A stretch of 64,000 nucleotides of DNA from Chrysomallon squamiferum (GCA_012295275.1 CM022670.1:31062001-31126000); one strand, 5' to 3'; counted from the stretch's first letter, positions 7,301 through 58,159 are shown. Notes: generated by a model not told the origin, from the sequence alone. Made by a program: numbers and translations.

Positions 7301-10300
7301 ACCGTGGACTGCCTTGCCAGGTTGGAACGAAATATGGAAAGCTACTCTTTCTGAGTTCAAGTTTCCCACCATTTTAACTAGTCCGTTTGAAAATGTTCCG
7401 CTTTTTTCAATGTTAAAGTTTGCTTTGTTTACGTCACGCCCGTTTTTATATTCTGCTTCAGTTATTAGACTATATAACTCGTTGTCTGTTGTTTGTGTCA
7501 GTCGTATCGTCGCCTTGATATCTGTTCCTACCAAGGTAGTTGCTGTTGTTAAAAATCCTTTTGAATTACGACTGTGCTGGAAATCAATGTCAATATTTTC
7601 AATGTATGGTGCTGTTGCTCTAATTTGTGTATCAATGTTTCCTGCGAAGATGCGATGTTTAATGTCTGCTTTGTAAGTTTTGTCATCAATCATAAAGGTA
7701 TATACACCAGTAAAATCATTAATACCACCCGACTGTTTCATCATTATGGAAACTTTTCTTGTACTAGTTACGTTTGTGTTTGCAGTAATTTTTATCTCTG
7801 TTTTTGATTCTTCGACTGTTATATAAATATTTGCATTAATTTTTTGGGAGTTCTCTATTGCAACTTTAGAGTCGACAGACCATTCGGTGTTTCGTAGGCG
7901 ATGTTTGTGTTCGATTGACATTTCTCTATAACCGTCAAAAGGAGTAATTGCTGTAAATTTTCCTTTAAAATTCCTTAAAGTTGATGATGTAATACGAGAT
8001 GTTCCTTGAAGTGTTTTTCCATCCATGTATGTAATTCCTCCGTCAGACTTTAACGTGTTCTTAACAACTTGATGACCAAATGAAAGACCAACATCTCGGA
8101 AACTGTCAAATGGAGTTCGCATTTTCAAACTTCCTTCAACATTTTCAGAGTGTACAAAGTTTGTTACAATACTGAATGTTTTGTCGTCGACATTTCCATC
8201 AAGATTAGCCTTCCAGATCAATCCCGAATCTTCTTTGTGGAAAATAAATCCAGCATTTTTACTGTAGTTGTTGAATTTGTAGTTTATGATGCTGGAACAT
8301 TTAATAATCTGATCTGTAAAGGCAAATATCATGTCATTGCTTATTTTGAATATATCACCATATGATCCTGTTACTTGTGATGTAAAGTTCTTTAACTCAC
8401 CTTTCATTTCAATAGTAATGTCAGTATTTTTCATGAATGGCGTCGTGATAACAGCAGTGGATTTTAACATTTTGTGAGATAATTTATTGTCCCACATCCC
8501 TGAAATTTTCTGGGAATTACCATATAACACTGAAAATGAACAGTTTAAGTTTTTCAGATTTCCATGATGGAAAATGTCGACCACAGTTTCATTGAATTTT
8601 TTCCGTTGTATTGTGAGATGTGCAGAACTCTCACCACCAGAGTTATAACCATCGTGTCTTATCACGAGTTGGCTGCTTTTAAAGTATTCTATTGGCGTTT
8701 GTACATAAATATAACAATTAACACTTTGATTTAGCCATTTCATTTTGAGATTAAATTGTGTTGGATCGTATGAATCAAACTGAACTCTAATTTTTGTCTG
8801 AATTTCGTGATTTCCTAAAGTATGTTTTAGAGATGCACTCATATATTTTGCATACTTGAATGGTGTTTTCACAGTTGTTTCAATTTTAATTGCATCTCTG
8901 AAGTTGTATGTTGATTCAATGCTGATAATTTGTTCTGATGAATACTGTATTTCAGCAACAAAGTGATTATTCCTTTTGATTTTTTCATTCTTTATGTCCA
9001 ACTGGAAATAGGGAAAACTTTCATGAGAAGCGTCAATTCGCAATTTTGCTTGAAGATCAGAAATATAATGCCAGCTGAGAACTCCTTGATACGTTCCTAG
9101 TGGTGTTGCCGTGAATTCAGCTTTTGTGTCGAAGTCCTGAAGACTTCCAATAAACTGAAAACCAGTTTGAATTTTCCTGTAACCTGTAAATGATGTTTCA
9201 AGCCTTGCAAAGAATAACATGTTTTTATCTAGTTGAATTCGGCTTTCGAAATTTATTTCTTTTCTGTTTCCATATTCCACACCAACTCTTGTATTGAGTT
9301 CTTGCCTTTCTCTTTTTTGTTTGGCTGTTATTAAGATGTTGTTGAACCCATCAAATGGTGTTTTAAGTCGCAGATGTCCATCAATATTCGTCAGGGAAAC
9401 TGAAGTTAAGGTACCGTCAGCTATAACTTTCTTGTACGGCGAAAGTTGGAACTGGGCGTGACCTGTCAAATCATTGCCATGTCTTTGGGTTTTCAGCGTT
9501 CCAGAAATATCGTCTGTCCATGGAGTTGTAAGGAGAATGTCAGCCTCGATTTTGTCAGGTGACATAAAATAGTTCAGGTTTGTTGACATCTTTGATTCAC
9601 CGTTGAGCACAAAAGTGCCCTGGTGAGCAACGTATCCTGTTCCAATTTCATTGTTGAGGATAGTATTTACAGCGTTCAGTGGAGCCCACGGAGTTTCCAG
9701 TTTCAAGACTATTGTGCTTTTTGTTCTTGCAAATATTTCATGACTTCCTGATAAATCAAAAAGTATTTTATTTCCATTTCCCCAGTTGGAGTTGATAACT
9801 ATTTTAATGTCCTTGTCAGTGTTACGATGTTGCCAGGAATTGTCAATACGATAATAGCGGCCAGCTTTAAGTTTTAATTTGCCGTTATTAATTATATTTA
9901 AGCCTTGAATCTGGTGATGCAGTTCAAGATCATAAACATACTTTTCTTCATTTATGCCAACAGTGACTTCTGTGTCATAATCGGTCCAATCGTCAGCGTG
10001 TTTTACCTGGATTTCAAACAATCTGAACTTAGGAATACTCGACTTGAAGGAAAAGAAACCATCTAAGTCTCTTTTTGAAGACGTCCCTCTGTTTTCACCT
10101 GAAACTATGACTTCTGCTGTTGTTTTGTCGACGGAAGCCTTTAATTCAGTTTTGAGTCTGTTATCCAAGTTGTGTACGATACCAAAATTAAGTCGTCGCA
10201 TTTTATTAAAAGGTGTTTTTGCCGTCATGGTTAGCGCCATGCTTCTTGCTGATATTGGTTTTGCAACATTGACTGATGCTGTAATTATTTTTCTTTTCCC

Positions 10301-11628
10301 GGACCATGACAGCCTACTCTCTACGCCATACATTTTCTTGTTACCAATGTTTGTCAATTCTGCTTCGATATCATCAAATGGTTTGAAGGGAGATTTCATT
10401 TTTATCACCGATCTTTTTGCACTTAATACTGAATCCAAAACAATTTCATTTCCTCCAGACCACGTAATATCTGCTTCAGTTTTGAACTCAGTTTCTTTTT
10501 TATGTCTAAGGTAAAAATCTATTGATTGTTTTGGATACTTCAGGGAAAAAGATGAGTCAATATTGTCTACAGATGGAATATTAATTCTGCCAGTAGCCTG
10601 CATAACTTTTCGACCGTCCAGTTTAGTATTGATACTACCTGAATACAGAGAATCATTCTTCTCGCCCATAAATTTTATTTCTACACGTTTCGATGGATAT
10701 TTAATATTGAGTTCCAAATTTCCTTGTGTTCCTGCGCGATATTTGTAAGTAGTATCAACACCGTATTCCTTCTTTCCGTAAATGAAATCTCCCGAAGCTT
10801 TGAAGTCCTTTGCATTCAACCTGATTGTCCCCTTGATACGCATTAGTGAAATATTTGGAACGATAATTTCTGATTTAAACTCATGAGATATCTCCCCTTT
10901 GCCCCTGGAATAAATACTAATAACGCTTGCCTTCTTTTTCCCGAATTTAGCATCCATGCTGTGTTTGTATTGGTTAGAAGAGGGTTGCTTAAATTCAGTA
11001 TCAAAAGATACATCGCTTCCTGGGTAACTAATCTTGAATGAACCATAGAGTTTTGTGAGTTTTCTGCTGTTGTCTTTTAGACTAAGTTCAGTTTTGATTT
11101 TCTTGTTTTTCCCGTTTGTAAGACCATGTGAAGAGACCAAGCTCCGGCTGTCGTGTTTGTGATTACCTCCAAGGATGATATTTGTATACTGAAAGAAAAT
11201 TATTCCCCAATATATTTGCTATATAGAAAAAAAAAAAAAATTGTATACATATGTAATGCTTTAATTGTGTTACACAAATAGCTGGATGTAATCTTTGAAT
11301 GTACGTAAAAATGTGTTCATTAGATTTGGTTACATTCTATAATAAGAAAGGAATATTATCTGACGTTGAAAACGATATAGGAATTGGTTATGATCATAAA
11401 CCATTTAAGACTTATAATTATTTCTAATTCATATTACATTTAATACATAATTGACCTTTCTAATCAATATACTACAAACAGATTCTTTCTTTTATTTTAA
11501 AGTTCAAAAAAATCCACCGCATTTAAATATCTAATGAAATGATCTATGGACTATAAACGAAATTAATACACAACCCAGCCGCCTAAAACAACTATCTTAT
11601 GACTGATGTGTAAACTAAGTAACCGGAA

Positions 11629-15789: not shown

Positions 15790-18700
15790 TTTAATAATTA
15801 TAAAAACACGCAAATTATGACAACTGCACAAATTAAAACTAGAATTACTGATCACTAGTAAGTAATATTAATTTAAAGCCTTCTATCTATTTATCTAGCT
15901 GTCTATCCGGCTGTTCGTCCATTCATCCAGCTATTTAAAACTTGCCTCTGAGCGTTTTGCCAGCAGTTTGTAGACTGTATGGGTATCACGATTTTTCAAT
16001 GTGAGTCCAAATTTCAAAGGGCCAGTGAACGGGAAGTATGGCGCATTTTCCATGTAGGAGGCATTGACGTACTGAAATTCAGCACACACTTCAAAGCCTG
16101 TAATTTTAGCAATTCTCTTTCCTGAACACAACTGTACGGCCTTACGCTTGTCTGTAATTAATTTCTGTTCTCGTTCTCTGTTGCCGTATATTGTGAAAAA
16201 TCCAGTTCTGAAAAGAAAACCAACCGTCTTAACGAATAAAAAGATAACTGTTTAACGACATCGCAAACAGAGAATAATAACGATTATTTATTTATACATC
16301 GATTAGTGGGACACGTTTAAACATGAAATTGTCAAAATAATGTGAACAGATAAATAAAATGTATTAGATGTGGACAAGCAATCAGAGCAGATATTTCAGA
16401 AAAAATAATGAGTTCTTTCTCCTGAAAAATAACAGTTACCGTTTTCTCTATAGGAATGATATACCAGTATTTTCATGTTCATTACATTTACTACGAAAGG
16501 TATACTGTGCCAAATAAGTTTAGCGATTAAATAAAAATATGAAATACAGAAAAGTGACTGGGTGCTGAATTTATTTGTAAACATTATTTAATTGATACAG
16601 CATTTCTGAATCTAGTCAGACGTAACACGTACTCATGGTTTCGACGTCGTTCTATTAATGTCAACTAATTAAACGGAGGGATACATCTACCAAAATGGTC
16701 AGAAAGGTTCAATAATGTGTGTGTGTGCACCAGTTGCATTGATGACAGAAGTACATCGTCGTCTCATGCTTCTAATGAGAGCATTAATATCAGGAACAGT
16801 AATTGCGTTCCATTCCCGGTTCAGAGCAATTTGTAGGTCATGGACATTATGGATATGAGGACGGTTTTCGCATTATTAACTGGGGACAAGTCAGGAGACT
16901 TTGGTGGCCAGGCAGTTCAACACTTGGGTGTGGTTCCGCTCAAGGGCATTAGCTGCTAGCCTAGCGGTATATGGTCTAACGTTGTCATTTTGATACAGAA
17001 TGCCAGGATACTGCTGCAGGAATGGAATGACCACTGGTGTATTGTTCTCGTCGCAGTAACGTTGAACAGTCATGTTCCCGTGAATGAAAACGAGATCTGT
17101 TTTACCTCCACCATGAATGCCGGCCTAGACCACGACGCTGCCACCGCCATATCGGTCAGGCTGAATGATGTTGTCTGCATCAAATCGTTCTCCACGACGC
17201 CTCCAAACATGACGCCTACCCTCCGCAAACATTTGCACAAAACCTGGATTTGTCTGTGAATAATTTCTGCGTTGCCAGTGTTGGTATATTCTGGCCATCT
17301 CAGACGTTCCTGAATGTGACGCGCTGACAAGGGAACAGTTACAAGAAGGCGACGTTCTTGTAATCCAGCAGTATGGAGACGGTTACCAACAGTTTAAGCA
17401 TGAATTCTAGTGCCTGAGGTTTGCTGCAAAGTACGAGCTAAACGTGGAGCACTTTCGAACCTATGTTCCCTTGGATTAATCGATATCGCACTTGCCCAGT
17501 TTGGTGTAAGAGTCGTGATATGGTACTGTCATGAACACGAAAGTATTGAGCGACATCATATACGCGTTGGCCGGCGTTAAGACGTTCCGTTGTTTCATGG
17601 CGTTGATTTTCCGTTAAGCCTGAACGGCATATCCATTACAACAGGATAAATTCTTCCTTTTGTTTTTGGATAATGTTGGTTCAGTGCATCAAAATGTGAT
17701 TTCAAAATATATGCACGTGCAGTACACATAGCGGCGTGCGATATGACAAGTGATGTTCTTTTCATGACCCAAAGCAACAGGGCATTGGCAACTAACATAT
17801 TACCACGTTTTATCTCTTTATTTTAATTTATTTGGAAGCAACAGTGATTTATAAAAACTTGGTAAACATTTTTGGATAAGTATATAATACAAATAAGATT
17901 AAAATAGTATTTATGCTGTGAAACCTATTTAACTTACGTGACATCTAGAATTTCCATGTTCTTTTTCGGTGCCTCAATCTCAGCACTAAGAACTTTACCG
18001 CGGTCCAGTTCTATTTTTGCACGAACAGACATACTGGAGTGCCACGTGTTGACAATCCGTATTCCTGTTTTTGTGACGAAAGCGTCAATAGTCATAGCAC
18101 CAGAGAAAAGAACAGCCCCACTGTAAGCGTATGTAAATAATAAATATCTTAGTTTTTATGTATACTATAATAATATTAAAAAAAAGAGCACACTTTATAA
18201 AAATTTTGGTTTATGAAACAGTTATTTATAATAATATTGTTTTCAGCTAATACAATGTTTAACATATGTTAACGGAAACAGTTTTCATCCTTATTTCCAT
18301 CCATTCATCAATGCTTTTAGACATATAACCCATATATACAAACGTATATTCAAATGTGCAGAGAGATTTGTAAATATATAACTATAAAATATACAAGAAT
18401 ACAAGCATAATAGAAAAGAATACACTTTCCATGTCAAGACAGCAAGAAAAACCATACCTGGGCTGGATTGTTCCGTCAACGAGAAGACTTCTCGGACTTT
18501 TGTGTACCTTACGTAGATCTATCTTTCCTTTCGCTTTCAGGTCTACAGTTGCTGTTCCGTTGACTGTCAGATTGAGTGGGAGACCGCTGCTGGTAGGAAT
18601 GATCATGGAGCTGTCGAGAAACATGATACTCTGTGTGAGCGAGTAGTCGTGGTCTTTCGACATTTTGATCAGGGCATCCAGAAAGTTGAAATTCTTTCCT

Positions 18701-38100: not shown

Positions 38101-41100
38101 TTCCATGTAATCTGCAACATCTGATGGGTCCATTGCTGTATAAAAAGTCTGTTATAAAAAGAAAGCAAATGTTTTTGTATATATAACAGTATAATTAAAT
38201 ATATATTTATAATTATAGATGAACCTCAAATAACCACAAACCATATTTATGTACATGATTTCTTGTATGTTCAGATGTGGATGGTTTTAATATTGTTGGC
38301 CAAACAATTAATATTAACTATACAAATAGTTGAGAAAAAAAACTGACATTCCAAATGAAGTTTGAATAAAGTTATTGGGTCATTCCGTGTCAAATCACCC
38401 AATGGTTTAAACCCGACCGTCTCAGATTTTTATGAAACTTGGTATACTTGTTGACTGGGATCCCACAGCACCAAATCTGAAATTTTAGCTCAATCAGACC
38501 AGTGGTGTGGGAGATACGGCCCACCGAATTTTGAGATTTTTGCCAAAAATGGGTGTGGCCACCAACCTTAGAACCCTCACATCTCAGGAACTACTGGGCC
38601 AATCTTCATAAAATTGGTATTGTTAGAAAGGCAAAATGACAAGGATACCAAATCTGCCATTTTTGTTTAGTTTGGAAAATACTGGAGTACCTTGACCTTT
38701 TGACCTTTGCTATGACCTTGAAACTGACCGTGTGGATCACGTGATCTTGAGATGACCTTTGTTGAAATTTAATCTCCCACATGTTAACTAAAACATATAA
38801 AAGTTTCCTGGGTGTAATATTTTTTGTTTAGCCACAATATAGATTTAAAAAAATGCACATACATGAAAATAACACCTTTTCAGCCATTAACATCTGATTA
38901 ACTAAAACCTGAATGATCAATTCTGGATGCTAGGAATCACCATCTCTCTTGATCATGAAGTAAGACATTGTAGGCCTACATGTATGCATAAAGTTCACAT
39001 ATAAAGGTTTCCTGGGTATAATATTTTTTGTTTAGCCATAATAGAGATTTAAAAAATGCATACCTGCATGGATGATTGATACTATGCATTACAATGTACA
39101 TTTTTTCTGAGACTAAAACTCATCTTTGGAGTTAAAACCCATCTGACATGTCTGAAGGAATGCCTGAAGGATATGAAAAGATGCCAAATGGCATGACATG
39201 TTGTACACAATCAGGCTGAAAGGGTTAACAGGAAGTGATGCTTCAGGCAGGTCAGGAACTCCTTTAGATTCCCTGGTGCAATCCCCATTGAACACATGGC
39301 AATTAGAAGTTTAAGACAAAGAAGTTTAAGACAAAGAAGTTTCTTCATCTGCATTTCTTTGACAATCTGAAGCTTTTTAAGTTGGACACAGTGTCAGATG
39401 TTGATATATAAACAATATTTTTATTTCATAAAACCTATTAAGTAATTTTATCATGTCATGTGGGCCGTGCCATTGGTTTTGAACAAGGTTTCAGTCAACA
39501 ACAGTACAACCCAGTCTGAAATCAGACGTCATCGAGTGATGTACTGCATAATGTATTTGTACACCCAGTCTTCTGCACAGAGTATGAACAAGGTCTACTT
39601 CACCTTAATAAACTGTGATTTATACTTGAGAAGATTGACATAAATGCCCAAGACTTGTGGGCCTTTGGCAATAACACATGTACTCTGCTGCCATTTTATG
39701 ACCTGCTTAACTTTACTGAAAGGGTTTCAGGATTTGATTTAATATTTAGGAAAGCACCGACTTTGTTCTATTGAATTGAAGGTGCAGGCCAATACTGAAA
39801 ATCCTTATTTCTTCCAGGGCTAACTGCAGCTTTAACTCTCCTGAAAATGTGTGTTATCAACACCATCATATCAAAAAGGAGTTGTTGCGAAGTGCATGGA
39901 AAACTGAGGAAGTTGAACTCCTCACTCTTTGAAGTGGGATCAAAACACGGGACATCAAGAGTATCACGAACAAGAACTTTTCATCAAATTTTCAACATTG
40001 CAGAAAAACTGTTGTGATCCCCTTAATCGCCACCCTGAGCAAGCACGCACTAGATCTTTAAGAATTGTTAGCATGGGCACTTACAAATGCTTAGTAAATC
40101 CTCCAAAGACACTAGTGCCAGGAGACAAGTTGTGCTGTGACTGTCTGATTACCCTTCAGAAATCAAAGGTCCTGCAGAGGATGGCTTTAGTATGGGTGGT
40201 ATTACAATGGGAGAATTTGGTGATAACTTGCCAGACAAACCACTGGTTGTTGTTTCCCCAGAAAAGGACTTTGATTTGAATTCTATTCTGTCGAGTTTAG
40301 GTGAAACTCCTGTCAAACTCCATTCACTAGCAAATTCCAGTAAATGAATGAAAGGACAGAAAAAAACTAGCATCAGCTACAGTAACATTAAAATGACATC
40401 TTAATGTCTGAATCCTACCCAGAGTGTGTGCAAATCTTGATTTTGTCACCCTTTACCATTGAAAGGACAATGAATTGAAGGAGGAAATAATCCAATTTTA
40501 TGAAAGTGATGAGAACAGTAGAATGTGTCTGGGAATGAAGGATACAGTGAGCATTTGAAACAAACATAGTGAGAAGGTTAAGCATCAGAAACACCTAGTT
40601 CTCTCAAATTTATGTGAATTTTATGCATACATGTAGGCCTACAATGTCTTACTCAATGATCAAGAAAGATGGTGATCCCTAGCATCCAGAATTGATCATT
40701 CAGGTTTTAGTTAATCAGATGTTAATGGCTGAAAAGGTGTTATTTTCATGTATGTGCATTTTTTAAATCTATATTGTGGCTAAACAAAAAATATTACACC
40801 CAGGAAACTTTTATATGTTTTAGTTAACATGTGGGAGATTAAATTTCAACAAAGGTCATCTCAAGATCACGTGATCCACATGGTCAGTTTCAAGGTCATA
40901 GCAAAGGTCAAAAGGTCAAGGTACTCCAATATTTTCCAAACTAAACAAAAATGGCAGATTTGGTATCCTTGTCATTTTGCCTTTCTAACAATACCAATTT
41001 TATGAAGATTGGCCCAGTAGTTCCTGAGATGTGAGGGTTCTAAGGTTGGTGGTCACACCCATTTTTGGCAAAAATCTCAAAATTCGGTGGGCCGTATCTC

Positions 41101-42358
41101 CCATACCACTGGTCTGATTGAGCTAAAATTTCAGATTTGGTGCTGTGGGATCCCAGTCAACAAGTATACCAAGTTTTATAAAAATCTGAGACGGTCGGGT
41201 TTAAATTTCTTTTTTTTTTTGGGTGATTTGACACGGAATGACCCTATTACATTTGAATGAATTTATTACATTTGAATAAAGATAATACATTTCCACTTGC
41301 AACTGCTTTATTATTAATGAAATGTTTACCCTGACAACAAGCACTCTTACAAGTTAACAAAATTATATTTTCCAAGATTTCTTTTTTCTTTAAAATGAAA
41401 TAAAATTTTAAAAATAAATGTACCTTTTCAAATCTGAACTTTTCATTGATAAGCAATGGGAAAATGGATGGCATCAAATGTGTATTTTTGTACTGTCCAA
41501 GCATGGACACACTTAAGTACACCTCTTCTTTGCTGGGTAACCATACCCCAGGTGCCGAAACCTACAACAAAGAAAAACAGAATTATCAGGTATAACAGTG
41601 ACACATTTTAATGTGATAATTTGAGAATTTTTATTTTATTTATAAATTTTTCTTTTCTAGGATTATCTTTCATATTGGAGAAATGACACACTATCTTTTA
41701 TTTTATTATCAAGAAAATATCAAGCTGGATGTTATTCAGAATCAAATGCCGATCCACTGATATTGCCCTATTTGTCTGTTTCACTGGGACAAGAGGTTAC
41801 ATTACTTAACTATCCCCTTACAATGTTATGTATATCTTACATACCTCTAATAATTGTTTTACAAACAAGCTGAACATCCAATGCACTCATACATTTTAAC
41901 ATCAAAATACAGTTTTATTTATTTATTTACTTTTGTTTTGTTTTGTTTGTTTGATTTTCGGTCGTTGTTTTTAAAAGGGTTTCTTTTTTATTAATTTTTC
42001 TATTTATTTTAAAGTTTATAATTAATAGTAATAATACTGAATACATATTAACAGATATCCGATATCGCTTTTTCAGTAAATCATTTATAACACCCAAATG
42101 TGATATTATGCATTATTTTATTTTTTCTATACTAACAAATTAAAACTGACCAAATGAAGAAACAAAATTAATCAAAAGAAAATGCAAGTGAAGGTAAATA
42201 ATGATTGAGCGGGTTTAAGGAAACATGACCAAACTTGATATTCTATATGAAATAAATGAAAGCAGATTAAAAATAACAATTTAAAAGCACAAACTTCCAA
42301 ATTTACTTACGGCATGAAGCTTTAAATCCACAACACATCTAAGTGCTCGTTTAGGCAT
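28307..42358 (-). CDS. SPATA6: Spermatogenesis-associated protein 6 family (SPATA6/SPATA6L-like), complete; ~493 or ~469 aa depending on isoform
   Basis: Exons 42311-42358, 41424-41561, 38100-38148, 37503-37675, 37001-37099, 36169-36218, 34559-34721, 33994-34105, [33229-33365 or 32401-32465], 31437-31509, 30866-31077, 29918-30006, 28307-28445, all GT-AG. N-terminus MPKRALRCVVDLKLHAVSAPGVWLPSKEEVYLSVSMLGQYKNT...FELIQL...RDFLYP...FPGIAPKLEFSTSTVIKE, internal RPPFVVR and C-terminal LVHLNRGEYW...GKSHRIVFNDNLSKIYSNLYNKA match recalled SPATA6 motifs. Confidence 0.92.
28580..29020. repeat. Degenerate AT-rich tandem repeat (core TAAATATTTCTACATTATAAAGAAGAGTAAATTAATT) in the last SPATA6 intron
   Basis: Several diverged copies are visible at roughly 55-65 bp spacing. 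Confidence 0.6.
32401..32465 (-). CDS. SPATA6: SPATA6 alternative exon B (phase 1 to 0)
   Basis: ttttgtag|...AAG|GTAACT; encodes (G)GYNDYDYSDYPSLRHRYHLSK. Phase-0 reading hits TGA. Confidence 0.65.
33229..33365 (-). CDS. SPATA6: SPATA6 alternative exon A (phase 1 to 0)
   Basis: aatag|...|GTATGA; encodes (A)YGTCDGTSYIDRNCLVCQAYKRHMGRPYWGHTYNYHPTGHYYNVP with no stop. Confidence 0.65.
38377..41244 (+). mobile_element. Sola2-type DNA transposon, internally deleted, in SPATA6 intron 2
   Basis: Termini GGGTCATTCCGTGTCAAATCACCC ... GGGTGATTTGACACGGAATGACCC. Near-identical TIRs of ~620 bp (38377-~39000 and ~40612-41244), 4-bp TSD TATT on both sides, GRG ends. Plus-strand transposase relics NCCDPLNRH...PGDKLCCDC and IIQFYESDENSRMCLGMKDTVSI*...QKHLVLSNLCEFYA resemble the Sola2 N-terminal region. 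Confidence 0.85.
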
Positions 42359-42608: not shown

Positions 42609-43519
42609 TAATATATCCAGTTCTTTTAAATATACAAGTAACCTTGTAAATATAAACAATATTTCATTATCTAAATTATCCCATCTCAGAAACAAAAGCA
42701 TTAACCGGAACAACGACTCGGAACGTCAAAGAGAAAATAACGGATTAGTGAAAATCTATTATTTAAATATACATTTAACTGAATTCGTGCATCTCAAGAT
42801 TATTAAATTTTTATTGAATTATAAATATCGTAATATGTTGTAATTTTAATGTCGGCACAAATAAAAAGTTCCAAAAATTCCATAAAAATAAAAATATATA
42901 TATATATATGATTAAAAGTTGAAATTCTTTATGCAGTTTTTCCCCTCCTTGCTCGCGTTAAAGAAAACCTTCTCGATTAAATTTAAAACTCCAATCTATT
43001 CTATACACTATGAATGAACACGTGAAGACTAACAAAAGTAGCTTAAATGTGTAATTCTTGTAATGGATCAGTCAATAGCATCCCTCATACTAAGCTAGGC
43101 CGTTTCGTACCAGCCGAGAGCAAAATAGAAAGTGATCAAGATTCATGGAATTTGTACAAACATTCAAGAACATTATGTCAATGCATGATCACTGAAGAGG
43201 ACATGGCCGTTAAAAACAAGCCGTTAATCCTAAAAATATGGTCCATCGTGCGAACAGAACGGGGTTCCTCTCCTTATCTCTGGTAATTAAAATCTGAGCC
43301 ACAAATTAGCAAGATATTATCGGATGTTTATAACGTTTCATGTGATAAATCCATACGGTAACAGACCATGGTTTGGGTTTCAGAAGTTTTAATAAATTCG
43401 ATGCCCAGCGATTCTAAAAATGTTAGTTCTTAAACAAATAGTTTTAAATAATCCAGCTATAAATATGACTTTTGTACCATAAAACGCAACAATGGTTTCA
43501 AGATCACCATTTTATTAAA

Positions 43520-46500
43520 TTATTTAAAGCGATTACATTCCGGGATCTCTTTTCCATATTGAATAAAGTATTTTTTGTACACGTTGCATTTTCTTTCGAG
43601 AAATAGTTTCAGATTTTGCCACATTGCAGTCCGAGGATCGAGTCCAGTCACAGGAACTGTGAAATTCATCTTCAAGATCGCCTTCATATTCCGAAATAAT
43701 CTGCAAAAGTTTTATTAATAGGATGTCTGGGGAGAAAAATTCTTACATATTCGTGTTTCATTTTTACAACCTTTCAAATTTTGTGAATTAAAAATTAAAA
43801 ATGTACAAAAGTGCAATCGTTATGAAAGTTAATTCACTTGATATTACAGTCTTGCAAAATATTTTCAATGTCGTTCAACAGATTTCAAAGATTAAAAAAA
43901 TTGTCTATTGCTTTCCTAAATACGATCCGTTTCTTCCAATACAAACTTACTCGTTTATGGCTTCGAAATCTTTCATTTCTCCTTTTCACGACGATGTTCA
44001 CAAAATCATGGTGAGGCACATTCACTAAAATTTAAAAATTGAACTATAACACATTTTCCAGTGATAATTTCAATATTAAGGAAAGGAATATAGTGTATCA
44101 CAGAATGCCGAATACATATACTTTAATCTGAAGTGGCTCTTATCACTTGCCTTCTTCATCGATTTTTCTGTCTTCCCAATTTAATCTTTTCACGACGTGC
44201 TTGAAAGCGGCCAACTGACCTTCATCTGCAAGGTAGACATTTTAAAATTAACAATTACGTATGCATCACGATGCCGACAGTAAATCAAATGGATTTTACG
44301 TTTCTTTTAAAAATTCTTACTCAAAAGCCTTTCTTTTTTTTATCCAAAGCGCCCGTGCGTTCGTCTCTCAATCCGGATAAGATGCGCTTTGCCGTTTGAT
44401 AACCTCGTTTTAATATTCTTTTGGCCGAATTTTCAACTTGTACTTTTACTTCATAATCAAAATGCGACAACGGCAAAATTTTCAGCAAATCGTTGAAATC
44501 TTCGTATCTGGAATGTAAAATTTAGTCAACTAAATTAAAATTTTCATTTTGAAACTTTAGCATTTTAGTCTTTTGAATTCGGGCATATGCAGTATCAGAA
44601 GACAACCTGACCTCCGCCAAACATAACATTTTCCACCTCAGATTTATATATTACATATAAAACCTATTTCACACTGGTGCTACTATTCATTCTTATAATG
44701 ATGCAAGCATTTTTGCATTTATACGTTGAAGTTGTTTCATGATTTTTTTTTTTTTTGTTTTTTTTTTTTTATGGAAATCTACAAAATAAGATACCACTAT
44801 GCAAAAAGTATACTTGCATAGTATGACCAAGTTTCTTACCGCTCTTCAAAATCTCGTTTGACATCGCTGAAGATTCCCATCAACTTATCTGCATGTAGAC
44901 ACTTCAGATCCAAACCAGCGGCTTCACCTTCCTTCCTAATATAGAACCTGATCTTCTCTTTCAGCTTCCCTTCGTCGATTAGTTTTACAATCGTAGGATA
45001 AATCTTTTTGATGTATCTGTCCGATTCTGCCATTTAAAATGCAAAATTCTAAATTTCAAAATCTAAATTGGTACATTGATTTCATCAAGTTATAAAACCC
45101 ACAGCCACAGATTTGAGGGTACAGTTAAAATGCTAGATACAGAAATTCACTATATGGATTTCCAATTTATTCATCTAGAAATTGAATTTCTAATTTAAAT
45201 TTCATATAAATTGAACAGTTCTGTCTTATTACTCAAGTATTGTTTATCCAATTACTTAAAACATTTCAGTATTTGCATTTTTCAGAAGTATTACAATTTT
45301 AGAACATTTGAATTAACGCAGATTGCTCGGAAACAATTACTTTCCGATAGTCGGAACAAAACGTCGTCCATTAAATCGTTTGTCAAGTTGCCGAACATCT
45401 TCCTAGCGTAGAAAACGACGTCTTCACGAGATACATCGTGCTTCTTCAAAACATTCACGATGGCCATAAAAGAATCGTTTTCTAATCGTAGAACAACTGG
45501 GAAAGATCTTCCAACGGCATCTACAAAATTTATATTTAAATTACAAGTTATATTTAAATTACATATACGGTCGAATGCACCCAACTAATAATTTTTATCA
45601 ACATTTTCTGACAACTGGCAAAAACAATTTCACATTTTCAACCGATTTTGTCTGGCTGGGAGTAAATTTACAAACGAGCTTTATTGTAATAGTTTAAATG
45701 AAAACCAAAAGCTGAATCGGCTTTATAAGCTGAAATTGTTTCTGGAAACGGATTAAAAACATTTCAGTTTTCGTAAACTTGTTTGATAAAATTTTCGTAT
45801 CCTAACGTTTCGTTTTTACTTACACATGATAATTCGGTTGAAGAGCGTGGAAGGACAGTTTGCCGTGGTATTGAGAGTTTTCTCAACCAAGCTGACCATC
45901 ATTTGTTTGGCTGCCATCCTCGCATCACTAGTCAATTCAAAAATGGACAAAGCCTCGTTTATAATGGGGTTAATCGAATCCTCCAGGTTTTCCACTTCAT
46001 CTGCAGAAAGTGCACATTTGTCCAGTTTAATACAAACAAGTTTGAAGTAACGTTTCGTTCACTAAATAGTATTCATGTACATTATCGTATATCATTAAAT
46101 TTACCAATTTTAAAATAACTTAATTTTATAGCTCTACGATTTTCTTCACCAGCTTAAAATAACATACCAGACATTTTGCTTATATCTGGAAATCCAATGT
46201 AATGTTTCAATACTGTAGGTTTCAAATCGAAGCATTTAAGTTCATTTTCATCATCGTCGTCGTCGTCGTCGTCGTCTTCCTTATCTTGGTAATCTGGATG
46301 AACTTTGTCATCCGGAGGAATCGTTTTATCATTTTGCCCAGGAATTTCATTCAGTTCACGAAAAATATCTTCCAACGCTACTTCGTCGAAAGGTCCGCGA
46401 ATTGAATAACCTGTGTTTTGTTGTTTTTAAAAAGAAAAAAAAAAAAAAAAAAAAAAATTGAAATTCCAACTTACAGACAAAAATATAGAAAACACATTCA

Positions 46501-46860
46501 AAAGGATTACAACGTATTGTTAAGTTTTTGCCAGCTACAGTGTATTTAAAAATTGAATTCATTAAAGTGTAACGAATGCCGTTCTTCTGAAGAAGGATCA
46601 TACAATATTTTAAAGTATTTGCACTTTTGTTATGCATTTCCTAAATCCGTTCTGTTTGGCCTTTTAAGAAAAGTCTTTACTTCGTGTAATATAGGAATGA
46701 TTTCAAAATATGAACGAAATTCAAAACGAAAAAAAAAAGAAAAAGAGAAACAAAAAAGAAGTTTAAAGAATAAAATAAATTTACAGTAAAGAGATTTATT
46801 TCTAAACTTACCAAAAACAAAAGGACTTCCTAACAAACAAAGCAATAAACACACCAACAT
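43520..46860 (-). CDS. Mirror copy of the same secreted-protein gene (left arm); as written it has homopolymer frameshifts in exons 6 and 8
   Basis: Reverse complement of 47680-51017. A8 instead of A6 at ~44334-44341 gives a premature TGA, and A4 instead of A3 at ~43983-43986 shifts the frame. These may be real lesions or consensus errors. Confidence 0.7.
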
Positions 46861-46896
46861 TTTGACAAGAGACTGGCAAACAGGTTTGAATTGGTC

Positions 46897-46999
46897 TTTT
46901 ATAGAAGCAAAATATATCAGCACATAAATTTATATTTGCACGTGATAATACAACTAAACACGATGACTCAATGCAGAAAAATCCAATCAGATCACGTGA
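46897..46999 (-). promoter_or_regulatory. Mirror promoter of the left-arm gene copy
   Basis: Reverse complement of 47541-47643. Confidence 0.62.
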
Positions 47000-47540
47000 T
47001 TCACGTTCATTTTAAAAGGAATAATAAAAGAAAAAAAAAAAAAAAAAAGACACCAACAATAAAAGATAAAATACTGTAGTACTGGTTTTAGTTTAGTTTT
47101 TGTGTTATGTAATTCGGCGAGAAATCGTGAAAAAAGTTGGATACAATTTTTCAAAAATTAATGAACAACTTAATTTATGAAACACTTTTTATTTTATTTG
47201 TTCCTGTATTTCTACTGAACAAATAAAAAAAAAAAAAATTAAAAAGTGTTTTTTCTTTTTCTAAAAGGAATAATAAAAGAAAAAGAAAAAACACTTTTTA
47301 ATTTTTTTTTTTTTTATTTGTTCAGTAGAAATACAGGAACAAATAAAATAAAAAGTGTTTCATAAATTAAGTTGTTCATTAATTTTTGAAAAATTGTATC
47401 CAACTTTTTTCACGATTTCTCGCCGAATTACATAACACAAAAACTAAACTAAAACCAGTACTACAGTATTTTATCTTTTATTGTTGGTGTCTTTTTTTTT
47501 TTTTTTTTTCTTTTATTATTCCTTTTAAAATGAACGTGAA

Positions 47541-47643
47541 TCACGTGATCTGATTGGATTTTTCTGCATTGAGTCATCGTGTTTAGTTGTATTATCACGT
47601 GCAAATATAAATTTATGTGCTGATATATTTTGCTTCTATAAAA
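47541..47643 (+). promoter_or_regulatory. Compact promoter of the right-arm gene: TCACGTGA E-box, reverse CCAAT, AP-1, second CACGTG, TATA
   Basis: TCACGTGA 47541-47548, ATTGG 47553-47557, TGAGTCA 47570-47576, CACGTG 47596-47601, TATAAAA 47637-47643, ATG at 47680. Confidence 0.65.
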
Positions 47644-47679
47644 GACCAATTCAAACCTGTTTGCCAGTCTCTTGTCAAA

Positions 47680-50600
47680 ATGTTGGTGTGTTTATTGCTT
47701 TGTTTGTTAGGAAGTCCTTTTGTTTTTGGTAAGTTTAGAAATAAATCTCTTTACTGTAAATTTATTTTATTCTTTAAACTTCTTTTTTGTTTCTCTTTTT
47801 CTTTTTTTTTTCGTTTTGAATTTCGTTCATATTTTGAAATCATTCCTATATTACACGAAGTAAAGACTTTTCTTAAAAGGCCAAACAGAACGGATTTAGG
47901 AAATGCATAACAAAAGTGCAAATACTTTAAAATATTGTATGATCCTTCTTCAGAAGAACGGCATTCGTTACACTTTAATGAATTCAATTTTTAAATACAC
48001 TGTAGCTGGCAAAAACTTAACAATACGTTGTAATCCTTTTGAATGTGTTTTCTATATTTTTGTCTGTAAGTTGGAATTTTTTTTTTTTTTTTTTTTTTTT
48101 TTTGTTCTTTTTAAAAACAACAAAACACAGGTTATTCAATTCGCGGACCTTTCGACGAAGTAGCGTTGGAAGATATTTTTCGTGAACTGAATGAAATTCC
48201 TGGGCAAAATGATAAAACGATTCCTCCGGATGACAAAGTTCATCCAGATTACCAAGATAAGGAAGACGACGACGACGACGACGACGATGATGAAAATGAA
48301 CTTAAATGCTTCGATTTGAAACCTACAGTATTGAAACATTACATTGGATTTCCAGATATAAGCAAAATGTCTGGTATGTTATTTTAAGCTGGTGAAGAAA
48401 ATCGTAGAGCTATAAAATTAAGTTATTTTAAAATTGGTAAATTTAATGATATACGATAATGTACATGAATACTATTTAGTGAACGAAACGTTACTTCAAA
48501 CTTGTTTGTATTAAACTGGACAAATGTGCACTTTCTGCAGATGAAGTGGAAAACCTGGAGGATTCGATTAACCCCATTATAAACGAGGCTTTGTCCATTT
48601 TTGAATTGACTAGTGATGCGAGGATGGCAGCCAAACAAATGATGGTCAGCTTGGTTGAGAAAACTCTCAATACCACGGCAAACTGTCCTTCCACGCTCTT
48701 CAACCGAATTATCATGTGTAAGTAAAAACGAAACGTTAGGATACGAAAATTTTATCAAACAAGTTTACGAAAACTGAAATGTTTTTAATCCGTTTCCAGA
48801 AACAATTTCAGCTTATAAAGCCGATTCAGCTTTTGGTTTTCATTTAAACTATTACAATAAAGCTCGTTTGTAAATTTACTCCCAGCCAGACAAAATCGGT
48901 TGAAAATGTGAAATTGTTTTTGCCAGTTGTCAGAAAATGTTGATAAAAATTATTAGTTGGGTGCATTCGACCGTATATGTAATTTAAATATAACTTGTAA
49001 TTTAAATATAAATTTTGTAGATGCCGTTGGAAGATCTTTCCCAGTTGTTCTACGATTAGAAAACGATTCTTTTATGGCCATCGTGAATGTTTTGAAGAAG
49101 CACGATGTATCTCGTGAAGACGTCGTTTTCTACGCTAGGAAGATGTTCGGCAACTTGACAAACGATTTAATGGACGACGTTTTGTTCCGACTATCGGAAA
49201 GTAATTGTTTCCGAGCAATCTGCGTTAATTCAAATGTTCTAAAATTGTAATACTTCTGAAAAATGCAAATACTGAAATGTTTTAAGTAATTGGATAAACA
49301 ATACTTGAGTAATAAGACAGAACTGTTCAATTTATATGAAATTTAAATTAGAAATTCAATTTCTAGATGAATAAATTGGAAATCCATATAGTGAATTTCT
49401 GTATCTAGCATTTTAACTGTACCCTCAAATCTGTGGCTGTGGGTTTTATAACTTGATGAAATCAATGTACCAATTTAGATTTTGAAATTTAGAATTTTGC
49501 ATTTTAAATGGCAGAATCGGACAGATACATCAAAAAGATTTATCCTACGATTGTAAAACTAATCGACGAAGGGAAGCTGAAAGAGAAGATCAGGTTCTAT
49601 ATTAGGAAGGAAGGTGAAGCCGCTGGTTTGGATCTGAAGTGTCTACATGCAGATAAGTTGATGGGAATCTTCAGCGATGTCAAACGAGATTTTGAAGAGC
49701 GGTAAGAAACTTGGTCATACTATGCAAGTATACTTTTTTGCATAGTGGTATCTTATTTTGTAGATTTCCATAAAAAAAAAAATCCAAAAAAAAAAAATCA
49801 TGAAACAACTTCAACGTATAAATGCAAAAATGCTTGCATCATTATAAGAATGAATAGTAGCACCAGTGTGAAATAGGTTTTATATGTAATATATAAATCT
49901 GAGGTGGAAAATGTTATGTTTGGCGGAGGTCAGGTTGTCTTCTGATACTGCATATGCCCGAATTCAAAAGACTAAAATGCTAAAGTTTCAAAATGAAAAT
50001 TTTAATTTAGTTGACTAAATTTTACATTCCAGATACGAAGATTTCAACGATTTGCTGAAAATTTTGCCGTTGTCGCATTTTGATTATGAAGTAAAAGTAC
50101 AAGTTGAAAATTCGGCCAAAAGAATATTAAAACGAGGTTATCAAACGGCAAAGCGCATCTTATCCGGATTGAGAGACGAACGCACGGGCGCTTTGGATAA
50201 AAAAGAAAGGCTTTTGAGTAAGAATTTTTAAAAGAAACGTAAAATCCATTTGATTTACTGTCGGCATCGTGATGCATACGTAATTGTTAATTTTAAAATG
50301 TCTACCTTGCAGATGAAGGTCAGTTGGCCGCTTTCAAGCACGTCGTGAAAAGATTAAATTGGGAAGACAGAAAAATCGATGAAGAAGGCAAGTGATAAGA
50401 GCCACTTCAGATTAAAGTATATGTATTCGGCATTCTGTGATACACTATATTCCTTTCCTTAATATTGAAATTATCACTGGAAAATGTGTTATAGTTCAAT
50501 TTTTAAATTTTAGTGAATGTGCCTCACCATGATTTTGTGAACATCGTCGTGAAAGGAGAAATGAAAGATTTCGAAGCCATAAACGAGTAAGTTTGTATTG

Positions 50601-51017
50601 GAAGAAACGGATCGTATTTAGGAAAGCAATAGACAATTTTTTTAATCTTTGAAATCTGTTGAACGACATTGAAAATATTTTGCAAGACTGTAATATCAAG
50701 TGAATTAACTTTCATAACGATTGCACTTTTGTACATTTTTAATTTTTAATTCACAAAATTTGAAAGGTTGTAAAAATGAAACACGAATATGTAAGAATTT
50801 TTCTCCCCAGACATCCTATTAATAAAACTTTTGCAGATTATTTCGGAATATGAAGGCGATCTTGAAGATGAATTTCACAGTTCCTGTGACTGGACTCGAT
50901 CCTCGGACTGCAATGTGGCAAAATCTGAAACTATTTCTCGAAAGAAAATGCAACGTGTACAAAAAATACTTTATTCAATATGGAAAAGAGATCCCGGAAT
51001 GTAATCGCTTTAAATAA
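47680..51017 (+). CDS. Unassigned secreted protein, 9 exons, ~449 aa (right-arm copy, intact)
   Basis: Exons 47680-47728, 48131-48373, 48541-48717, 49021-49200, 49515-49701, 50033-50217, 50313-50387, 50514-50586, 50837-51017 total 1350 nt in one open frame with all eight intron phases compatible (seven GT-AG, one GC-AG). Signal peptide MLVCLLLCLLGSPFVFG, acidic D9 tract, upstream TATA box, AATAAA 4 nt after the stop. Confidence 0.82.
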
Positions 51018-51020
51018 TTT

Positions 51021-51026
51021 AATAAA
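51021..51026 (+). terminator. Candidate polyadenylation signal AATAAA of the right-arm gene
   Basis: Immediately follows the stop TAA (51015-51017). The AT-rich context lowers specificity. Confidence 0.45.
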
Positions 51027-51254
51027 ATGGTGATCTTGAAACCATTGTTGCGTTTTATGGTACAAAAGTCATATTTATAGCTGGATTATTTAAAACTATT
51101 TGTTTAAGAACTAACATTTTTAGAATCGCTGGGCATCGAATTTATTAAAACTTCTGAAACCCAAACCATGGTCTGTTACCGTATGGATTTATCACATGAA
51201 ACGTTATAAACATCCGATAATATCTTGCTAATTTGTGGCTCAGATTTTAATTAC

Positions 51255-51619
51255 CAGAGATAAGGAGAGGAACCCCGTTCTGTTCGCACGATGGACCATA
51301 TTTTTAGGATTAACGGCTTGTTTTTAACGGCCATGTCCTCTTCAGTGATCATGCATTGACATAATGTTCTTGAATGTTTGTACATATCCCCTGAAAATGA
51401 CTTTCCACTAACACCCAGCGGCTCATCAACGGGTATAAAGCCCGCAAACCTTTCTTTAAATGGCTATATCGTTACAACGAACTCGGTCAAAGGTTGATAA
51501 CTGATGAAATGTTTTTCAAAAATTGCTTCGGGGTAGATAGACGTTAATCAATTTATCCTGCATGTACGTCATTAAATTAAGATCGTGATTCATGGATACT
51601 TACGTTCTGATCTTTTCAT
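51255..51619 (-). CDS. Possible small two-exon gene (~50 aa) converging on the right-arm gene
   Basis: TATAAA at 51689-51694; exon 51604-51619 (ATG AAA AGA TCA GAA C|GTAAGT); acceptor ttttcag then exon 51255-51390 in matching phase: MKRSERDMYKHSRTLCQCMITEEDMAVKNKPLILKIWSIVRTERGSSPYL. No recognisable homology. Confidence 0.3.
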
Positions 51620-57170: not shown

Positions 57171-57554
57171 TCAAGTCGGTTGGTCTGCAATATGCTTGCT
57201 AAATTGTACCACCTCATATATACAAGATCCCGGTGCCTCGGGATCCGACACGCCTACGACAATGAATTTCTCACTTCTGTGTGCCACCAAAATGTAATCT
57301 TCCGTGCGACCGACTATCGTTCCATTGCTGTTGTGCGTAAAACACGTGAAAATGCCTTCTGAAAATGTTAGTTTGGTCAGAGCCGGGTAAGTACTTGATA
57401 TAGCTTTCAAAAGACTCGAAGCGTCACCAGAGGAAACTTTCCATTCTTGAGTAGAAGCAACAATTTGTCCATCAAGACTAATGATAGCCGCGTTTTCAAC
57501 CTTTCCTCGTTTCACCAATCCTCGTAACAAATCGTTCCATCTTCTTTCTTTCAT
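57171..57554 (-). CDS. Profilin-family protein (divergent, 127 aa, single coding exon)
   Basis: Profilin length and pattern: N-terminal W (RWNDLL), VENAAIISLDGQIVAS, late beta strands ILVAHRSEKFIVVGV, C-terminal helix PGSCIYEVVQFSKHI. TATAAAT on the minus strand at ~57661-57667. Confidence 0.8.
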   Translation of the reverse strand: MKERRWNDLLRGLVKRGKVENAAIISLDGQIVASTQEWKVSSGDASSLLKAISSTYPALTKLTFSEGIFTCFTHNSNGTIVGRTEDYILVAHRSEKFIVVGVSDPEAPGSCIYEVVQFSKHIADQPT

Positions 57555-58159
57555 GGCTGTAAAGTTCGGTTGATTTTGATTTTTATCTAATTTGACAAGT
57601 GATACTTCTTTTGCCTGTGAATGTATTTCTTTAAATGACGGCCCTGTAGGAAAGATTCTTATTTATAGCCGAGTAACAACACATTGCTTCAGGTGGGTTA
57701 CTTGCGTTCTCTGTGCACACTCACCTGTTGGTGGTTTTATCGATTGATTGGGCCACTAGCAGACGACAAATGGTGACCCGTGGAAGGTCATCTATAAATA
57801 AAGTGTACCGATAAAGATCGCTAAAAAGAAAACTGCACTCGTGCTTGTAACATAGGTTGTTTGGATAATGTACGTGTTTCACGGGATCATAATAAACACC
57901 CAGAGCGAAAACTACACTGTGTTTCAAGAAAGGCACCCTTTAACGTAAGAGGTTTTGTAGGTGACACATTTTCCACTAAGTAAAAATTAAATGACAACCA
58001 TAACAACAACAATAACAAATGAAGTCCAAATGCTTCAGATTTTCGATGTTTATTGCTCCACATTTAAAAAATATAGAAAATAAATAAATAAAAATATGAA
58101 AAGGTAACCAATTATTTTTAAAATGATAACTTTATGGAAAACAACAACAACATGAATGA

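Follow-up and report, generated by a model that had tools for sequence, protein, structure and literature searches.

The 64,000-nucleotide stretch of the Chrysomallon squamiferum genome considered here (GCA_012295275.1, CM022670.1:31062001-31126000; hereafter the window, numbered from its first letter) carries at positions 43153 to 51384 an 8.2-kb palindrome, each arm of which spans a whole gene. The locus is a genuine inverted duplication that holds a complete spliced gene twice over, as witnessed in three DNA sequencing runs where the arm continues into two different flanks and is covered about twice as deeply as they are. With rather better than even confidence we read it as a duplication made by fold-back synthesis, with a likely authentic apex of 15 nucleotides (nt) and a centre closed by templated end joining.

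Geometry of the palindrome

Comparison of the window with itself returns a single dominant inverted match, which is this palindrome and is laid out as follows.

43153-47262, minus strand: left arm (4110 nt), from self-alignment
47263-47277, no strand: spacer, or apex (15 nt), from the assembly only
47278-51384, plus strand: right arm (4107 nt), from self-alignment; the arm contig ends exactly at 51384 in three of three DNA runs
51385-51409, plus strand: right outer flank (~25 nt), weakly similar to 43128-43152, the left outer flank, when the latter is reverse-complemented

Judged on its sequence, an inverted match of 4.1 kb far exceeds what chance would give. Alignment of one arm to the other leaves 12 mismatched columns in 4112 (5 substitutions and 7 gap columns, at 7 sites), an identity of 99.7%, and all seven sites lie inside or adjoin A/T homopolymers. 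Away from homopolymers there are 0 substitutions, with an upper 95% bound of ~0.07% on arm divergence, and over the innermost 363 nt complementarity between the arms is 100%, a 14-nt run included. Microsatellites occupy 0.5% of the arms versus 3.0% of the rest of the window. An earlier note on this DNA, made from the sequence alone, had given the same coordinates and anatomy for arms and spacer and had confined the arm differences to homopolymers, and both descriptions are confirmed by the alignment. It had also held the outer flanks to be unrelated, which stands for the first column outside the arms (43152/51385, a mismatch) and yields over the ~25 nt that begin there, where a weak similarity reaches p=0.006 at 25 nt, one of four lengths tried, the other three giving p=0.02-0.07. 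No target-site duplication was found at the palindrome ends (0 of 11 lengths, from 2 to 12 nt), nor any Pfam family, transposases included, above cut-off in the eight exons scanned (exons 2-9), again in keeping with what had been noted.

The duplication in independent contigs

The stretch 49810-51600 was compared with contigs of three DNA runs (X1, X2 and X3, bearing three sample codes and three study codes) and of one RNA run (X8). These are four of the 11 listed runs and one of the two listed RNA runs, X4-X7 and X9-X11 being left out; five of the 11 contain at least half of the words sampled from the left flank and arm. In each DNA run 51384 is the last position of the arm contig, and 51355 is where two further contigs start. 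The first enters the right flank with 0 differences over 513, 1317 and 293 nt (in X1, X2 and X3, an order kept throughout), and the second enters the reverse complement of the left flank, over 601, 597 and 596 nt; the 30-nt overlap at 51355-51384 is the expectation for a fork in a graph of 31-letter words. Rough as contig depth is, the arm stands at 13.1, 154.1 and 113.6 versus 4.6/5.7, 82.9/50.2 and 56/57.5 for the flanks, that is, ratios of arm to mean flank of 2.54, 2.32 and 2.00.

The flank contigs, of 293-1317 nt, run without a fork near the junction, which leaves no sign of an empty-site or inverted allele. We accordingly rejected the idea of a heterozygous inversion or of allelic flanks: neither flank contig forks, and conserved genes lie on both sides. 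By length, the arm contigs reach 48086, 49772 and 48264 unbroken, so that two runs show the unit doubled along 3.1-3.3 kb of its 4.1 kb.

That the locus is not a simple fold-back read, as previously argued, is borne out by both outer junctions and a depth of ~2x in all three DNA runs, and the depth over the arms, which had been proposed as a check, is 2.0-2.5 times that of the flanks. The reservation concerning an amplification or assembly chimera is lifted in part: the chimera pattern, single-copy depth with one outer junction, appears in none of the three runs, while the apex is read from the assembly only. The phrase 'very recent' is weakened if it meant confined to a single animal, since the duplication recurs in three samples with three study codes and no empty-site branch appears.

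Each of the three DNA arm contigs (49810-51384) also differs from the assembly by one letter, at an unplaced position; if this is one site, then the error or variant is common to both assembled arms.

The gene and its promoter

43520-46860, minus strand: left gene copy, nine exons, stop at codon 341 as assembled
46812-46860, 46168-46410, 45824-46000, 45341-45520, 44840-45026, 44321-44507, 44151-44225, 43951-44024, 43520-43700, minus strand: left-copy exons
46897-47643, no strand: symmetric divergent promoter region, from consensus matches only
47680-51017, plus strand: right gene copy, coding sequence of nine exons, 449 amino acids, open frame; RNA contigs in part; colinear with XP_041358798.1
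47680-47728, 48131-48373, 48541-48717, 49021-49200, 49515-49701, 50033-50217, 50313-50387, 50514-50586, 50837-51017, plus strand: right-copy exons
51021-51026, plus strand: AATAAA polyadenylation signal of the right copy, with its mirror at 43511-43516 on the minus strand

The right arm contains, as the earlier note had it, a whole transcription unit: a TATA box at 47637, an ATG at 47680 that is 402 nt away from the spacer, nine exons, a stop ending at 51017, the AATAAA and 367 nt between stop and arm end. In the RNA contigs of X8, introns 6, 7 and 8 (three of the three introns wholly within the compared stretch) are missing where the gene model places them, which shows the gene to be spliced; these contigs also bear the end of exon 5, as a loose end before exon 6. 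Intron 7 (50387-50514) is of the GC-AG type, and the RNA joint agrees with it, the cut being shifted by 2. TATA-like boxes at 46897-46903 (minus) and 47637-47643 (plus) face outward 733 nt apart, and between them CACGTG and TGA[CG]TCA motifs are mirrored, again as consensus matches only, which we take to be an E-box and an AP-1-like site, respectively.

Two side observations concern the same exons. One X8 RNA contig joins 51001, in exon 9, back to 50081, inside exon 6, away from splice sites; this is probably a complementary-DNA or assembly artefact, a circular form being possible. Exon 9 (50837-51017) has a second frame open for ~55 codons, with a homologue score of 24 against 125 for the modelled frame, the only one that matches the homologue.

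The encoded protein

The 449-residue protein has a single hydrophobic segment, at its start (Kyte-Doolittle 19-mer mean of 2.16 at residue 2, the next best being 1.12), a signal-peptide-like feature from which the protein is predicted, and probably is, secreted. It displays an acidic, Asp-rich N-terminal tract and five cysteines in the mature chain. A HMMER search with exon 4 against 1.84 billion representatives gave two matches, P0003 and P0002. The former is XP_041358798.1 (LOC121375420), an uncharacterised protein of Gigantopelta aegis, a vent snail (Gastropoda, Peltospiridae), colinear with ours and 46% identical over 403 aligned residues (pairwise E 8e-118). It shares the hydrophobic start, the acidic N-terminal tract and all five mature-chain cysteines, aligned, and it differs in being longer (520 amino acids), in its longer Asp/Gly/His repeat tract and in being annotated as one copy; its 90% cluster has one member and one accession. 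The latter, a repeat-rich TPR protein, was rejected as a chance match of only 38 residues, as was L001, from metagenome contigs, with its 18-residue chance match.

Word-based searches with exons 5 and 9, against longer proteins only, gave no match, and neither did searches of PDB with exons 3 and 5 and with P0003 below E 0.4. A single-sequence AlphaFold model of P0003, of mean predicted local distance difference test score (pLDDT) 38, gives a hint that the protein may be all-helical. The NCBI identifiers of the homologue are absent from the accessible portion of PMC11871041 and its text supplements, the tables of which may use other gene names, and no mention of them was found in a literature search for which most subscription journals were outside coverage. 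The suggestion that the gene encodes an effector finds no backing: the one true homologue comes from a vent gastropod and is itself uncharacterised, and the searches described here gave no known effector, Pfam or PDB match.

The apex

47013-47035, plus strand: likely spacer template, 249 nt inside the left arm, with a mirror copy at ~47505-47527 in the right arm
47180-47203 versus 47217-47251, no strand: nested small inverted repeat beside the apex, with a 13-nt loop, mirrored in the right arm
47262-47284, plus strand: motif of 23 nt at the junction (made up of 1 nt from the left arm, the spacer and 7 nt from the right arm), an exact direct repeat of 47013-47035

Two features of the centre were absent from the earlier note: the spacer is not unique, and a nested inverted repeat lies beside it. 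The junction repeat extends to 33 nt at 94%, and no second exact, non-simple direct repeat of 23 nt with its copies within 300 nt of each other occurs anywhere in the window. In synthesis-dependent microhomology-mediated end joining (SD-MMEJ), the loop-out signature is a repeat spanning the insertion together with its flanks on both sides (PMC2943611, in part), and here a nearby-templated repeat does contain the insertion and both flanks (1 + 15 + 7 nt). The nested repeat consists of two exact 12-mers split by T-runs of unequal length and ends 11 bases ahead of the spacer; shuffling the inner 403 nt (46860-47262) 1000 times yielded two such 12-mers together 12 times, and this repeat supplies two of the eight such 12-mers in the left 47 kb of the window. 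Yeast breaks can acquire short inverted insertions of 5-34 bp by fold-back (PMC11724301, in part), and by analogy the nested repeat resembles a snap-back product or an earlier apex.

It may also be that the order of events was the reverse. The junction repeat is possibly a pre-existing direct repeat, and both repeats could pre-date the duplication, having primed it; inverted repeats of 5-9 bp with spacers of 3-12 bp suffice to drive large palindromic duplications in yeast mutants (reviewed in PMC7999016, in part). Spacer and nested repeat look polymerase-made, and this raised our estimate that the 15-nt join is real as assembled, so that we would now call it likely. An attempt at using the orientation of the spacer to mark the left copy as ancestral was withdrawn: that orientation is arbitrary, because repair of the centre or flipping of the spacer can set it.

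Origin, stability and age

The course of events that we favour would have started with a break or a stalled fork ~400 nt upstream of the gene, the 3' end folding back and copying 4.1 kb in reverse. Synthesis would then have returned to the chromosome at the weakly similar 25-nt site, in a microhomeology-guided switch. The centre would have been closed, or later revised, by SD-MMEJ, the left end copying 15+7 nt from 249 nt away and annealing via its 7-nt A-rich end, and the nested repeat with its 13-nt loop would be the trace of an earlier snap-back step or of an earlier apex. As in yeast, where the spacer threshold for MRX/Sae2 attack and fork arrest lies at 8/9 bp (PMC8053094, in part), a spacer longer than ~9 nt would avoid the worst of hairpin cleavage and fork arrest, making the locus inheritable. 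Both copies, probably intact, would be driven outward from the symmetric 733-nt divergent promoter, and the outcome would be a doubled dose of their product, a secreted protein that is predicted to be helical and has five cysteines and an acidic N-terminal tract.

Several points weigh against this account. The junction contigs hold 30 arm-side letters, one below the 31-letter bridging rule; contig depth is a rough measure that gives no copy number; the assembly's own sample may be among the three DNA runs, and X2 and X3, both of 2020, may belong to one campaign. Read-derived contigs cover the outer arm only, the apex and the inner ~800 nt being known from the assembly, and a 49-nt apex pattern gave 0 matches in metagenome contigs, a search that is uninformative for an animal. 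The RNA contigs of X8 are assignable to neither copy in particular, and frameshifts in the left copy may yet be real, given that contigs drop variants. The similarity at the outer junction is weak. In yeast, repeats with a 12-bp spacer (PMC7999016, PMC8053094, both in part) and divergently transcribed repeats (PMC8053094) are still fragile, and for this reason the spacer alone fails to explain persistence. Finally, the likeliest role of the protein, that of a lineage-restricted extracellular matrix or secretion protein, is a weak suggestion only.

As to age, abrupt arm ends and the single annotated copy in Gigantopelta aegis lead us to favour a duplication younger than the split from that species, and since then common or fixed. 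Presence in all samples and drift of the nested repeat would still allow an older, converted locus.

We may also entertain, as a bolder and rather doubtful extension, that the palindrome is species-wide, transcribed and error-free, that its nested 13-nt apex is older than the 15-nt one, both just above the yeast threshold, that cycles of breaking and revising the centre are recorded there, and that the whole is held by selection for a double dose of a lineage-specific secreted protein. If true, this would be a natural animal case of centre-break stabilisation near the minimum spacer.

Competing explanations

The account that best survives beside fold-back origin, tentative though it stays, is that of an old palindrome with arms homogenised by gene conversion and a centre repeatedly broken and revised, the nested repeat with its 13-nt loop being a former apex. 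It would account for a locus common to all three samples with 0 arm differences away from homopolymers, for a nested repeat that has drifted in T-run length where the main arms have not, and for arms that closely fit one transcription unit. The Caenorhabditis inverted pairs provide a precedent (PMC1803023, in part), in primate X palindromes the centre is where rearrangements cluster (PMC8327919, in part), and the one unplaced letter by which each DNA run departs from the assembly could be a variant present in both arms. It fits less well with the abrupt arm ends, which have a weak shoulder of at most 25 nt, and with the one annotated Gigantopelta aegis copy, although that assembly could collapse a palindrome.

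An unlikely alternative is that the two inverted copies are real and the apex mis-assembled, the true spacer being longer or different. Indeed the apex is seen in the assembly only, is A/T-rich and of low complexity, and the arms carry homopolymer errors, which are typical of an incompletely polished long-read assembly. Yet the spacer is a clean copy of 23 nt found nearby, with flanking microhomology, a pattern that we take to be polymerase-like and rare from assemblers, and the inner 363 nt of the arms are fully complementary.

A third explanation would make the left copy a young pseudogene that loses its frame in exon 6 and regains it after exon 8, with no gain in dosage. Two of the seven sites of arm difference are exonic, which had escaped the first reading of the locus: as assembled, the left copy has 2 additional nt in exon 6 and 1 in exon 8, causing a frameshift with a stop at codon 341 and a loss of similarity to the homologue in exons 7-8 (scores of 45 and 64 for exons 7 and 8 in the open frame versus 20 and 33 in the left-arm version). 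Both changes are homopolymer lengths, however, and the right-arm, open-frame lengths are found, with 0 gaps, in all three DNA contigs and in the RNA contig, left-arm lengths being unseen. This makes six of six run-by-site DNA observations, p~0.016 if both versions were equally covered and randomly kept; contigs drop variants, and the removal of bubbles may not be random. The left-arm exonic changes are thus probably errors of an unpolished assembly, to judge from these sequences, in which case the arms may be fully identical, and we hold the pseudogene to be quite improbable. The former description of two full copies stands for the right one, open over 449 amino acids, and has to be qualified for the left one, frameshifted as assembled in exons 6 and 8.

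That the palindrome might be a fold-back transposon, or one with giant terminal inverted repeats, having captured a host gene, is very improbable. Its ends read TG...CA, a terminal motif known from DDE elements, and its arms are poor in microsatellites, as reported above. Against this stand the lack of a target-site duplication at any of the 11 lengths and of a Pfam (transposase) match in eight of the nine exons, an arm end that is not multicopy, with contigs unbranched to 51384 at ~2x, and arms that are those of a host gene with a colinear homologue.

Least credible of all is that a gene of single copy was turned into a palindrome by an amplification chimera or a fold-back read. Such chimeras are reportedly a known artefact, but both outer junctions, ~2x depth in three of three runs and flanks that are different unique sequences refute this reading unless all three DNA runs share the assembly's library.

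Comparison with known palindromes

Long palindromes with very short spacers are reported to be unstable wherever they are introduced and rare in natural genomes, and the survey of inverted copy-number variants in which this is stated found no case with unambiguously intact palindromic arms (PMC10766186). Inverted paralogue pairs of Caenorhabditis (F44E5.4/F44E5.5 and the hsp-16 locus) resemble the present locus in being whole genes of opposite orientation in an invertebrate, F44E5.4/5 being divergent, with arms up to 100% identical, intergenic DNA included. Here likewise opposite paralogues lie in arms that extend over genes and intergenic DNA, at 99.7% identity. Their spacers are of 126 and 414 bp, versus 15 nt here, and they are conserved across species, the present palindrome being known from one species' locus (PMC1803023, in part). 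Newborn duplicates of Caenorhabditis are often adjacent and inverted (PMC2728529, in part). Primate X (and Y) palindromes too have arms at least 99% identical, protein-coding genes and centre-concentrated rearrangement; unlike ours, with its 4.1-kb arms, they are defined by arms of at least 8 kb, and their spacers run from 77 bp to 358 kb. They are sex-linked and testis-biased (PMC8327919, in part).

At the level of the junction, the likeness is with Drosophila SD-MMEJ, where a direct repeat spans insertion and both flanks (loop-out type; PMC2943611), and with yeast fold-back insertions, where a short inverted copy lies beside the junction (snap-back type; PMC11724301). Those come from induced breaks with small products, whereas we are dealing with the apex of an inherited 8.2-kb palindrome whose template is 249 nt away. 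Inverted triplications made by origin-dependent inverted-repeat amplification (ODIRA), and human inverted copy-number variants, share an interstitial inverted copy, a short interrupted-palindrome junction and likely template switching (PMC10766186, in part); ODIRA gives three copies and two palindromic junctions, in contrast with two copies here at a depth ratio of 2.0-2.5. By analogy, the nearest experimental model would be a mouse 15.4-kb transgene palindrome, also long, gene-bearing, carried in an animal germ line and stabilised by gaining a small central asymmetry. It was artificial, initially spacerless and rearranged in ~35% of offspring, unlike this natural locus shared among samples (reviewed in PMC8701086, in part). 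The palindromes of Folsomia (PMC5490193, in part) were discarded as no close match, being diverged multi-gene blocks, and PMC13155455 treats, in the part available, only perfect repeats with spacers <9 bp, which leaves this locus outside its scope.

Gene-bearing palindromes are therefore known, from Caenorhabditis and the primate X, with spacers of at least 77 bp in the compared literature (PMC1803023, PMC8327919). What would set the present case apart is a very short, templated spacer in a natural, expressed and shared locus; a literature search for which most subscription journals were outside coverage found no comparable mollusc locus. Divergent transcription raises the fragility of palindromes in yeast (PMC8053094, in part). 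A 15-nt spacer between whole divergent genes, if true, would be a natural test of the minimal central asymmetry tolerated by an animal germ line, and the locus would also test whether palindrome centres are revised over time. It flags, besides, a lineage-restricted secreted protein the dose of which may be under selection.

The surrounding window

Directly downstream of the left gene copy, SPATA6 runs leftwards on the minus strand from 42358, starting 794 nt left of the palindrome; the other neighbours are a lipoprotein-family gene and a profilin-like gene. With the homologue described above, these neighbours point to an animal genome, most likely that of a gastropod related to Gigantopelta aegis. 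Inside an apparent SPATA6 intron, at 38377-41244, sits a 2868-nt element whose terminal inverted repeats, of ~600 nt, are 98% alike, whose ends read GGG...CCC and which is bordered by TATT at either side; it is without a long open reading frame and is likely, from these features, a non-autonomous DNA transposon. A large lipid-transfer gene, apolipophorin/vitellogenin-like, occupies ~400-23600 on the minus strand, with Vitellogenin_N and open beta-sheet matches and one open frame of 1832 codons at 5720-11218; within it, at 16891-17393, lies a broken Tc1/mariner-like transposase remnant (HTH_Tnp_Tc3_2, E 7.7e-6, below cut-off). On the palindrome's far side, at 57171-57662 on the minus strand, the profilin-like open reading frame is apparently intronless and has a single relative, at 76% identity.

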